DNA of 64,000 bases, from the sequence record NZ_KX443399.1; one strand, 5' to 3'. Origin of the DNA: a plasmid. Position numbers: made by a program. How positions within the stretch are numbered: the first letter of the stretch is position 1; each line of letters starts with the position of its first letter. Positions 21,001-24,000 of the stretch are shown here, piece after piece.

Positions 21001-24000
21001 ATACGACACGTCCCCTTATCGAGAGAAGGCCACCATGAGCGGCAAACTGAGCCAGGACCAACTCGACGACATCCGTGCCCATCTCAAGCAGGGAATGTCG
21101 CCCAGGGAAGTCGCGGACTACTACGGCCGCGTCGCAGACCTCGACCTCATCGAGATCGCACGTATCCGCACTGCCGCATACGAAATCGAGCAAGAGGAGC
21201 AAGCGTGACAGCACCGGCAACCAACGACGCCGCCCAGCGCGCCCGCTACGGCAACGCCCTGAGCGGTCTCGCGGCCGGTGACGCCTGGGGCTACCAAGTC
21301 GAGTTCACCTCGTACGCATCCATGCCGGCCTACCCCGTGGCCGCGCCGGCAGGGGAGTGGATCGTCAGCGACGACACCCAGATGACCCTCGCGCTGCACG
21401 ACGCGCTCGCCGAGGTCACCGACTTCGACGACATCCCCGCGGTCACCGACGCGATCGTCCGCCACTTCGTCCTATGGCAGGTCGACCCCGACAACAACCG
21501 GGCACCGGGTCGCGCGTGCATGGGCTCGCTGCACCGGCTGCGTGCCGGCGCCCGCTGGTACGACAAAGACGGCGCGCGTGAATCCGCCGGCTGCGGCGCC
21601 GTGATGCGTCTGGCACCAGCTGCTTTCGCGCCGGAACCGTACTGGCCCGGGCTGACCGCGCTCCAGGCCGTCATCACCCACAAGCACCCGCGCGCCATCG
21701 TGCCCGCGCTGCTGCTAGCCGACGCGATCCGGCACGCCCCCGACCGCGGCGGCCTGCTCCTCGAGCACGCCCTCGCCGAGGCCGACCGGATCTACGCAGG
21801 CACCAGCGACTGGCTGACCGATCCGTACCTCGCTGACGTCCTCGCCCCCTACCGAGGGGACGTGTCATCTGTACTGGTAGACGGCCTGAATGATGATGTC
21901 GTGGACCTACTGAACGTGGCCGCTGAGGCCCGGGACCGGCTCGACCAGCTTGACCCCGCCGACTTCGGTGACCCGTGTGCCGGCATCGGTCAGGGCTGGG
22001 AGTCCGCCAGCGCGATCGCTCTCGGCCTGCTGGCCGCGGACCTCGCGACGTCCCAGGGTGGAACAGACACAGCACCTTTGACCGGGCCCGAAGCGCTGGC
22101 GTGGGCGGCCACCAGCAACGGCGACTCCGATTCCATCGCGTGCATCGCCGGAGCGGTCATCGGCGCCGCGTACCCAGCGCCGGACTACTGGAGCCTGTCG
22201 GGCCTGACGCCTCGGTTCGAACCCCGCTACGCCACCGAGATCGCCGCGGCCGCCGGTCAACTGCCCGGGGCGTCGTCGGCAGAGTGATCGCAGGGGCACA
22301 CCCCGTAGGTGAAATGGGGCGTGAACTGCGACGATGACACGTCCCCCTTTCCTGAGATGGATAGGGAGGCGGCGAGATTCGTCGCAGGAGAACCACCCAC
22401 AGCAAGGGGGAGAAGATGCAGCCGACATTCATGGGAACCATCGGCGCCGCGATGGTCATCGGAGGCGTCCTCGGGATCGTCTGGTCGCGGCGTACAGCAG
22501 ACAAGCGCAGCCGCGACGCGACCTACTTTGTCTACGCGTGGGCCTCGGTCGCCGTCTGGTTCGGCGCCCTGCCGATCATCGGCTCGATCGACGACGTCGC
22601 GGTCCTGCCGGCCAAGCTGCGCGACATCCTCTACGCCCTCGTGCTGATCGGCGGCCTAGCCGCGACCCTGTGGTTTGTCGCTGCGGGAATCCGGGCCCGC
22701 CGCAGTGAGTTCCGCGAACTCCAGCGCCGGTACACCGACGCAGGGCGCACACCGCCGCGGTACTTCTGGCGGCCCTGGGCCATCTTCAGCTGGACCCTCG
22801 GCCTGGGGTCGGTCGTCGTCATCGGCGGCGGCGTCGCGGGCGCTTCCCTCGTCGGGGCGCTGCTCGACAACGCGACCGCCGACGAGGTCGACCGGACCGC
22901 GCAGAACATCGCGAACCAAGGGCGACAAGGTCGACCTGATGAGCGACGAGGATGTCACCAAGTTCATCACCGAGCAGTACGCGAAGATGTGCCAACCGGT
23001 GGCCGGGTACGACCTGGTGTTCACGCCGGTGAAGTCGATCTCTCTGCTGTGGGGTCTCGGCGACGCCCAGGTGAAAGAGGCTGTCGAAGAGGCACACAAG
23101 CAGGCCGTCGACGAGGCCCTCGCGTGGATCGAGGACGAGGTGATCTACACCCGTCGCGGGGCCGGCGGCGCCCGCAAGGTCAAGGCCGAGGGGCTACTGA
23201 TCGTACGGTTCGACCACTTCGACAACCGTGTCGGTGATCCGAACCTGCACACCCATTCCGCGATCCTGAACCGGGTACTGGCAGAGGGAAAGTGGACGAC
23301 GATCGACGGCCAGGTGCTCAACAAGGCGAACGTTGCTGCGTCGGAGCGCTACAACACGCGCGTCGCCGATCTGGTCGCGCGCAAGCTCGGCGTCACCTTC
23401 GCCCCGCGCCCCGATACCGCCGTCGGCAAGCAGCCGGTGTACGAGGTCGAGAGCATCCCTGTCGGGCTGCTCGAGGAGTTCTCGCGGCGCGCCCAGATCG
23501 AGGATCGACAGGCCGAACTCGCACGCGAGTACAAGGACAAGTACGGCAAGAACCCGCCGAAGAAGGTGCAGTACGCGCAGGCGCAGCAGGCGACGCTGGA
23601 CACCAGGAACGCGAAGAACCCGCCACGGTCGTTGGCGGAGTTGCGCGCCGAGTGGCGCGAGCGCGCGTCCGCGATTCTCGCGGGCTCCGACCCCAGCACG
23701 CTGGTCGACGAGGTGCAGTCGGGTCGCGATCGGCGCCCTGCGTTCTACGCCCCGCAGCTACCTGCTCTCGTGCAGGAAGTGACCGACGATCTTTCGCGCA
23801 AGGTCGGTTCGTGGACCGTCTTCTCGCTGCAGGCGGAGATTCAGCGTCGGCTGCGAGAGTTCAGTTTCGCGGGCGAGATGGACGTCAACGAGTACGTCTC
23901 GGACGCGGTCGATCTCGCCGTCCGCGACTACTGCCTTCCTACCTTCACCGAGGTCTACGACGCACCGGAGAGTGTCAGCGAACGCGTCGAGCGTGGGCTG

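Follow-up and report, generated by a model that had tools for sequence, protein, structure and literature searches.

Does the gene annotated as a relaxase on the plasmid record NZ_KX443399.1 encode a working relaxase, one half of a split relaxase, or only what recombination has left of such a gene? The window analysed here – one strand of 64,000 nucleotides (nt) from that record – contains an open reading frame (ORF) of the TraA/TrwC family that appears to begin too late, and whose start is overlapped by the frame of a membrane protein. From the sequence alone, the first-pass annotation had proposed that traA lost its 5′ end in a deletion or rearrangement that placed the rest beside the membrane-protein gene, and had predicted either a mobilisation-defective element or an atypical split relaxase. 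We conclude that the traA feature is very probably a non-functional recombination scar, the remnant of a relaxase gene.

By comparison with related records, the replicon can be identified as pVAPN, a linear virulence plasmid of Prescottella (Rhodococcus) equi. Positions 21000–27000 are 100% identical to both pVAPN94-27 and a second Japanese pVAPN plasmid, and 99.8% identical to pVAPN1572; since the ends of the window match pVAPN94-27 at only 95–98% identity, the window represents a close relative of pVAPN94-27 rather than that record itself. pVAPN is associated with ruminants.

What the window retains is the interior of the relaxase–helicase gene found on circular plasmids of the pVAPA and pVAPB type (Table 1), with a nucleotide identity of 96.3% to pVAPA1037, 97.2% to pWY and 96.6% to pVAPB1593. 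The ORF that carries it runs from 22675 to 26145 on the plus strand. Translated from its first ATG (22939), the product starts with MSDEDVTKFITEQYAKMCQPVAGYDLVFTPVKS and reaches the block AGYDLVFTPVKS 22 residues later, as had been seen in the first pass, whereas in the 1422-residue TraA of pVAPA1037 the same block occupies residues 183–194, downstream of MTVHKLSAGDGYVYLTKHVAAGD...AVDYYVTKG. The Pfam matches tell the same story: TraA of pVAPA1037 matches the TrwC profile from its first position (1–237, from residue 8), whereas the pVAPN product matches only positions 70–285 of 286, followed by AAA_30, AAA_19, TraI_hel_assoc_N and UvrD_C_2.

The catalytic tyrosines of MOBF relaxases – Y18 and Y26 in TrwC, Y16, Y17, Y23 and Y24 in F TraI – are found among the ~40 N-terminal residues of the relaxase fold. 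Alignment with solved structures places pVAPA residue 183 opposite F TraI residue 78, while pVAPA residues 30–65 (ADAVDYYVTKG...) align weakly with the F TraI Tyr23/24 segment. Residues 1–154 of the pVAPA protein hold the motifs GYVYL and DYYV, and an N-terminal catalytic tyrosine motif is absent from the pVAPN product. From the profile starts, 1 against 70, and the structure alignment it therefore follows that the part with the catalytic tyrosines falls within the ~154 residues that pVAPN lacks. The proposed N-terminal truncation is thus borne out, and the product would be unable to nick oriT or to form the covalent tyrosyl–DNA intermediate, as had been predicted.

In what it keeps, the pVAPN copy resembles TraA of pVAPA1037 and pVAPB1593 closely: 96–97% nucleotide identity over 3333 bp, the HUH motif, the AGYDLVFTPVKS block, and the superfamily 1B (SF1B) helicase and TraI helicase-associated domains. 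The Walker A motif GAAGAGKT and the DEAG motif of the helicase core are intact in this copy. It differs from those proteins in lacking residues 1–154 and 1265–1422 – the extreme C-terminus among them – and in being frameshifted at codon 1215.

Might a TraA subfamily naturally start at this point, so that the protein of 1068 residues is a normal short relaxase? The RefSeq name 'MobF family relaxase' suits such a reading, as does the MOB-suite result for the plasmid (MOBF, mobilizable). Yet among the 49 nearest cluster representatives that were screened (50–89% identity), 43 have a length of 1400–1450 residues; partial records occur among the shorter ones; and the pVAPA and pVAPB genes, 96–97% identical, carry 154 extra N-terminal codons. 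A subfamily without the N-terminal extension, which the first-pass annotation had named as one finding that would overturn its reading, is therefore next to impossible here.

A split relaxase, its catalytic N-terminal module encoded elsewhere and acting in trans, has nothing in its favour beyond the missing domain itself. The missing pieces were sought with TraA residues 1–160 and 1181–1422 as tblastn queries in all frames, and with 1.3 kb of pVAPA DNA that covers the region upstream of traA and the first 460 nt of the gene as blastn query; across the window and the other 61 kb of pVAPN94-27, neither the TraA ends nor the pVAPA DNA was matched significantly, and for residues 1–160 no tblastn match was better than E = 0.31. 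Furthermore, traA breaks off where it meets unrelated backbone DNA, and not at a gene boundary; the break falls at position 70 of the 286-position profile, within the Pfam domain of the relaxase fold. The split relaxase suggested in the first pass is accordingly extremely improbable. Absent from pVAPN are the first 154 codons, which include the catalytic tyrosines and TrwC profile positions 1–69, and the last 158 (residues 1265–1422); the cognate DNA on the oriT side also appears to be gone.

The machinery with which such a relaxase would work is missing as well. Compared with the traA locus of pVAPA, that of pVAPN has neither the pVAPA-type upstream DNA nor the pVAPA type IV secretion system (T4SS) and coupling-protein genes nearby, and the region of pVAPA1037 from 20 to 41 kb – which encodes a coupling-type protein with a TraM-recognition domain, an SCO6880-family protein and others – has no match in the window. 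A plasmid without a working relaxase need not be immobile, however: pVAPN has been described as a conjugative, invertron-like linear replicon, transferred independently of a relaxase and a T4SS through the FtsK/SpoIIIE-type translocase TraB (PMC6852188, PMC5434932). The annotation of pVAPN94-27 includes a gene with an FtsK/SpoIIIE domain at 18303–20459, outside the window. The prediction of a mobilisation-defective element is thus contradicted.

The left end of the remnant is a breakpoint between two genes, each of which has lost a part. The nucleotide alignment with pVAPA1037 shows near-identity from 22916 (codon 155, AKGDKVDLMSDED...) and no similarity before it, so that the similarity to TraA starts 23 nt ahead of the ATG, with KGDKVDL (pVAPA residues 155–161). 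On the other side lies the membrane-protein gene, with GGGGGAG 4 nt ahead of its ATG at 22416. Its product matches no Pfam family, but tblastn finds homologues on eight Rhodococcus plasmids, with 44% identity to pNSL1 (residues 10–167) and 72% to pYLC1 (residues 80–167). The alignment of the homologues stops after ...ADEVDRTAQNIAN (residue 166), while the homologues themselves extend for ~32–40 residues more, with a fifth hydrophobic helix; the blastn match to pYLC1 ends exactly at 22915. The breakpoint is therefore 22915|22916, truncating both traA, at its 5′ end, and the membrane-protein gene, at its 3′ end after codon 166. The rearrangement proposed in the first pass is confirmed, with the addition that the membrane-protein gene was itself a casualty. 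As the nearest intact relative of that gene is only 72% identical, microhomology at this junction is not definable.

The membrane ORF (22416–23237, plus strand) has four hydrophobic segments within its first 151 residues, as had been noted; the description of a protein with four transmembrane (TM) helices holds for this copy and not for the family, whose intact members have five, the fifth being the portion lost in pVAPN. In place of those last ~32–40 residues, the pVAPN copy has a tail of 106 residues read from traA DNA. This tail (58% Arg, Gly, Pro or His; net charge +19) has no counterpart in the homologues and accounts for the 299-nt overlap with the annotated relaxase ORF, in agreement with the ~300 nt and abnormal composition reported earlier. 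Conversely, the traA frame upstream of the ATG (22675–22915) consists to 82% of Arg, Gly, Ser, Pro, Thr or Ala and is the membrane-protein gene read out of frame; it had rightly been called unlike TraA, although the similarity to TraA begins before the ATG. Both the abnormal tail and the R/G/S-rich upstream sequence thus arise because each frame reads out of frame into the other gene. The switch is equally visible in the GC content of third codon positions: the membrane frame has 0.90 up to 22915 but 0.35 from 22916 onward, where the traA frame has 0.88.

Two other explanations of the overlap were considered and rejected. A translational fusion of the membrane ORF with traA is contradicted by the +1 difference between the frames, the missing native C-terminal helix and the nature of the tail, which is out-of-frame traA; and nothing suggests a slippery site or the conservation that would speak for programmed frameshifting. 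RefSeq leaves 22416–22938 without any feature, and in pVAPN1572 the equivalent region carries a minus-strand hypothetical ORF instead.

Could the arrangement be an artefact, in which a chimeric join was made or an overlooked frameshift conceals a full-length gene? Frameshift errors are indeed common in assemblies of high-GC genomes. However, both junctions recur unchanged in three pVAPN plasmids, from Japan and Ireland, that were sequenced independently of each other, the exact product of 1068 residues is on record for seven contigs, and the 460 nt missing from traA turn up in no frame at all, rather than being shifted. An error of assembly or sequencing is thus hardly credible.

The 3′ end of traA is damaged twice. 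With TraA of pVAPA as the tblastn query, residues 144–1216 fall in one frame (22885–26103) and residues 1216–1264 in another (26102–26248), after which nothing follows; the frame changes at about 26102. A nucleotide alignment of seven sequences locates the cause in a 1-nt insertion near 26099, common to pVAPN94-27 and pVAPN1572 and absent in pVAPA, pVAPB, pWY and SGAir0479, and owing to this insertion the frame ends at 26145. The same shifted C-terminal tail is found in two products of 1068 residues (P0121 and P0133). Further on, local alignments extend the traA homology over 26180–26248 and start that of a gene for a DUF2637/HTH protein at 26241, so that the two share 8 bp at the right junction. 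The DUF2637/HTH gene has lost its 5′ part and has a 4-nt deletion just past the junction; what remains is annotated from a GTG at 26306 as 'HTH domain protein'. In Pfam terms the pVAPA protein consists of DUF2637 and HTH_23, whereas the pVAPN ORF has HTH_23 only, the DUF2637 membrane domain being lost. The 3′ truncation (homology end at 26248), the insertion and the pVAPA-type context described below come in addition to what the first-pass annotation had reported.

Table 1. Features of the traA locus and segments of the window that match pVAPA1037 (first position of the window = 1).
Feature	Window positions	Strand	pVAPA1037 positions	Identity	Remarks
Membrane-protein gene, 5′ part (codons 1–166)	22416–22915	+			Conserved backbone gene of pNSL1-type linear plasmids; small multi-pass protein
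Read-through tail of the truncated membrane ORF	22916–23237	+			traA DNA out of frame; 106 residues, Arg/Gly-rich; not native coding sequence
traA remnant	22916–26248	+	15552–18883	96%	Internal fragment, codons 155–1264 of the 1422-codon MOBF/TrwC relaxase–helicase gene of circular pVAPA/pVAPB-type plasmids
Longest ATG-started ORF in the remnant	22939–26145	+			1068 residues; RefSeq 'mobF: MobF family relaxase', without pseudogene flag
HUH histidine-triad metal-binding motif HFDNRVGDPNLHTH	23215–23256	+			Retained; aligns with F TraI/TrwC (...fnHdtsRdqePqLHTH) in solved structures
SF1B (RecD-like) helicase ATPase core, AAA_30	24169–24732	+			Pfam 2.5e-55; residues 499–686 of the ORF starting at 22675
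1-nt insertion, codon 1215	26098–26100	+			Shifts the frame; stop at 26143–26145
Right junction, 8-bp microhomology CCGCCGAT	26241–26248	+			Present in traA at codon 1264 as well as within the DUF2637/HTH gene
5′-truncated DUF2637 + HTH_23 gene remnant	26241–26782	+	44093–44659	86%	
DUF2637 remnant, RHH and Lrp/AsnC-like genes	26241–28231		44093–46111	86%	
Colinear segment	28462–29454		55112–56267	81–92%	
vap island	29940–44077		56909–76606	67–84%	Lsr2, vir operon, vap genes

The remnant does not stand alone. Four segments of the window match pVAPA1037 and follow each other in the same order as they do there (Table 1), and the similarity to the backbone of pNSL1, which stops at ~22828–22915 within the membrane-protein gene, resumes at 46620, only ~150–250 bp further on pNSL1. 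Some 23.7 kb of pVAPA-type DNA, including the vap pathogenicity island, therefore stand in place of a very short stretch of backbone, with the traA remnant as its left edge.

These observations suggest a sequence of events whose order we infer. A linear plasmid of the pNSL1 type, the ancestor of pVAPN, would have acquired a large segment of a circular pVAPA-type plasmid carrying the vap island, its left break lying within the donor's traA and, on the recipient backbone, within the 3′ end of the membrane-protein gene. The two truncated genes would have been left abutting, with the membrane ORF running out of frame into traA DNA. Illegitimate deletions – later, concomitant or even before the integration – would have removed the equivalents of pVAPA 18.9–44.1 kb, with the T4SS and coupling genes, and of 46.1–55.1 kb; deletion would also have taken the 3′ end of traA and, through the 8 bp of microhomology, joined codon 1264 to the middle of the DUF2637/HTH gene. 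Devoid of catalytic tyrosines, of a cognate T4SS and of recognisable cognate DNA on the oriT side, the remnant is decaying, while pVAPN would be transferred by TraB, an FtsK/SpoIIIE-like translocase of double-stranded DNA. The base-level junctions and the colinearity with pVAPA over 23.7 kb record the passage of the vap island from a circular replicon to a linear one: by integration of a large plasmid segment, probably followed by microhomology-mediated deletions.

Across the block (22916–46619), the identity to pVAPA1037 is very uneven: 96% in traA, 86% in the RHH and Lrp/AsnC-like genes past the DUF2637 remnant (which match pVAPA 44.4–46.1 kb), 92% at 28699–29454 and 67–84% in the vap island. 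Such unevenness suggests different donors or very different rates, and a circular plasmid in the same host may later have recombined with the traA piece and refreshed it. At the right end of the block, at 44084–45084 on the plus strand, overlapping short ORFs give weak Pfam matches, below the gathering thresholds, to HTH and integrase-core (rve) domains. They resemble a fragmented transposase and probably correspond to the tniA remnant of the literature, in which remnants of tniA and tniQ are reported beside the pVAPN island (PMC5434932).

As to decay, the evidence points in two directions. Several observations weigh against a pseudogene. The substitutions private to the pVAPN branch number 26 synonymous to 14 non-synonymous, for a ratio of non-synonymous to synonymous rates (omega) of ~0.18, far from neutral (binomial p = 1e-7) and no different from that of the functional lineages (Fisher p = 0.40); most sequenced pVAPN plasmids still have the frame of 1068 codons uninterrupted, the seven contigs mentioned above encoding exactly this product; and the HUH and helicase motifs are kept intact. 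The low omega fits recent capture from a diverged, unsampled functional donor, but it would fit continuing constraint as well. A candidate for a sampled donor, a cluster representative 98% identical to the pVAPN product (P0001), was rejected: it shares none of the pVAPN-private replacements, and so the donor lineage remains unsampled.

As a branch-wide rate ratio is uninformative on its own as a test for a pseudogene, it was replaced by a test of private replacements at family-conserved positions, defined as those with a conservation of at least 90% across 43 full-length homologues (50–89% identity). Such positions account for seven of the 11 pVAPN-private replacements in the ORF – R179C, A250V, G333S, M784I, A786P, V824G and R1094H in pVAPA numbering – against one of 18 in pVAPA, pVAPB, pWY and SGAir0479 (Fisher p = 0.0014). 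By this test, purifying selection on pVAPN traA is relaxed.

Individual pVAPN plasmids carry further lesions. In pVAPN1572, a +1 insertion at the equivalent of window position 24809 (~ NZ_KX443401.1 7005–7045) splits the remnant into two annotated coding sequences. One Japanese plasmid (that encoding P0127) has a 1-nt deletion near 26060 and a product of 1041 residues, and another pVAPN plasmid has the replacement S739L within the helicase motif TVHRSQG. Between pVAPN94-27 and pVAPN1572 there are four single-base differences: two non-synonymous, one synonymous and one past the stop codon. Replacements at conserved sites together with further lesions in a very young lineage form the pattern of a pseudogene. 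For the insertion in pVAPN1572, a genuine mutation and an error in the sequencing of that record are both conceivable.

It is against this background that the most serious alternative has to be weighed, namely that the doubly truncated TraA, started at the ATG at 22939, is still expressed and retains some function or has gained a new one, whether as an SF1B helicase or single-stranded DNA-binding protein or by acting in a dominant-negative manner on the relaxosomes of pVAPA and pVAPB. The open frame, the intact helicase domains and HUH motif of this copy and the overall omega all speak for it. Against it stand the seven replacements at family-invariant positions, three independent extra lesions in a young lineage and a C-terminus removed by a frameshift that the pVAPN plasmids share, while the low omega can be attributed to divergence in a functional donor before capture. 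Nor are expression signals apparent: a promoter and terminator scan of 22150–23300 returned no sites, and none that was promoter-like, and the ATG is preceded only by a weak AAGG, with no strong ribosome-binding site. Continued expression with some function is thus improbable. Less probable still is its more specific form, in which the ORF is translated and the product, with a complete helicase and the DNA-binding portion of the relaxase fold still in place, is a dominant-negative competitor of pVAPA and pVAPB relaxosomes (or an accessory helicase for pVAPN itself); were it true, it would contribute to the mutual exclusivity of the host-adapted plasmid types. A decaying remnant accounts better for the locus.

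This remnant is not new to the R. equi literature, where pVAPN traA is known from the TRAVAP typing scheme, which uses it as a marker; the locus described here is the same, with no difference in kind. Isolates with pVAPN are positive by traA PCR, and PMC7947234 states, citing Valero-Rello et al. 2015, that their traA is a pseudogene. It is thus an already recognised pseudogene, to which the base-level junctions, the 3′ truncation, the frameshift, the microhomology and the evidence of relaxed constraint are added here. As both the pseudogene status and the transfer by TraB come from the literature, the present results bring little new biology and amount to a caution about annotation rather than a discovery.

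That caution concerns surveys of plasmid mobility. Because the RefSeq/PGAP annotation treats the remnant as an intact relaxase, MOB-suite types pVAPN as 'mobilizable, MOBF', which is misleading in such surveys. In the PLSDB records NZ_AP024188.1 and NZ_KX443401.1, the call 'mobilizable, relaxase MOBF' is owed solely to the traA remnant, and no mating-pair formation (MPF) type is listed for pVAPN. pVAPN1572 is, in addition, entered in PLSDB as circular, though the replicon is linear. A second practical consequence touches typing: the traA marker targets this remnant, whose decay through frameshifts and private substitutions explains the occasional traA-negative, vapN-positive isolates mentioned in PMC7947234.

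Beyond the left junction, the surroundings of the membrane-protein gene are those of a linear-plasmid backbone. The protein shares the motif PPRYFW-PWAIF-WT with its pNSL1-type homologues, and that of pNSL1 (WP_147430447.1, 198 residues) occupies the same position in the locus, downstream of an ADP-ribosyltransferase/ADP-ribosylglycohydrolase pair; the gene order on pNSL1 is ADP-ribosyltransferase, small ORF, ADP-ribosylglycohydrolase, then the membrane-protein gene. In the window, the corresponding trio lies at 18653–22287 on the plus strand: a large protein whose C-terminal domain is an ADP-ribosyltransferase (exoenzyme/ART), then a small ORF, then the ADP-ribosylglycohydrolase. It is found directly upstream of the membrane-protein gene in pVAPN, pNSL1 and pYLC1, at 76–77% nucleotide identity, and may represent a writer/eraser pair of the linear-plasmid backbone.

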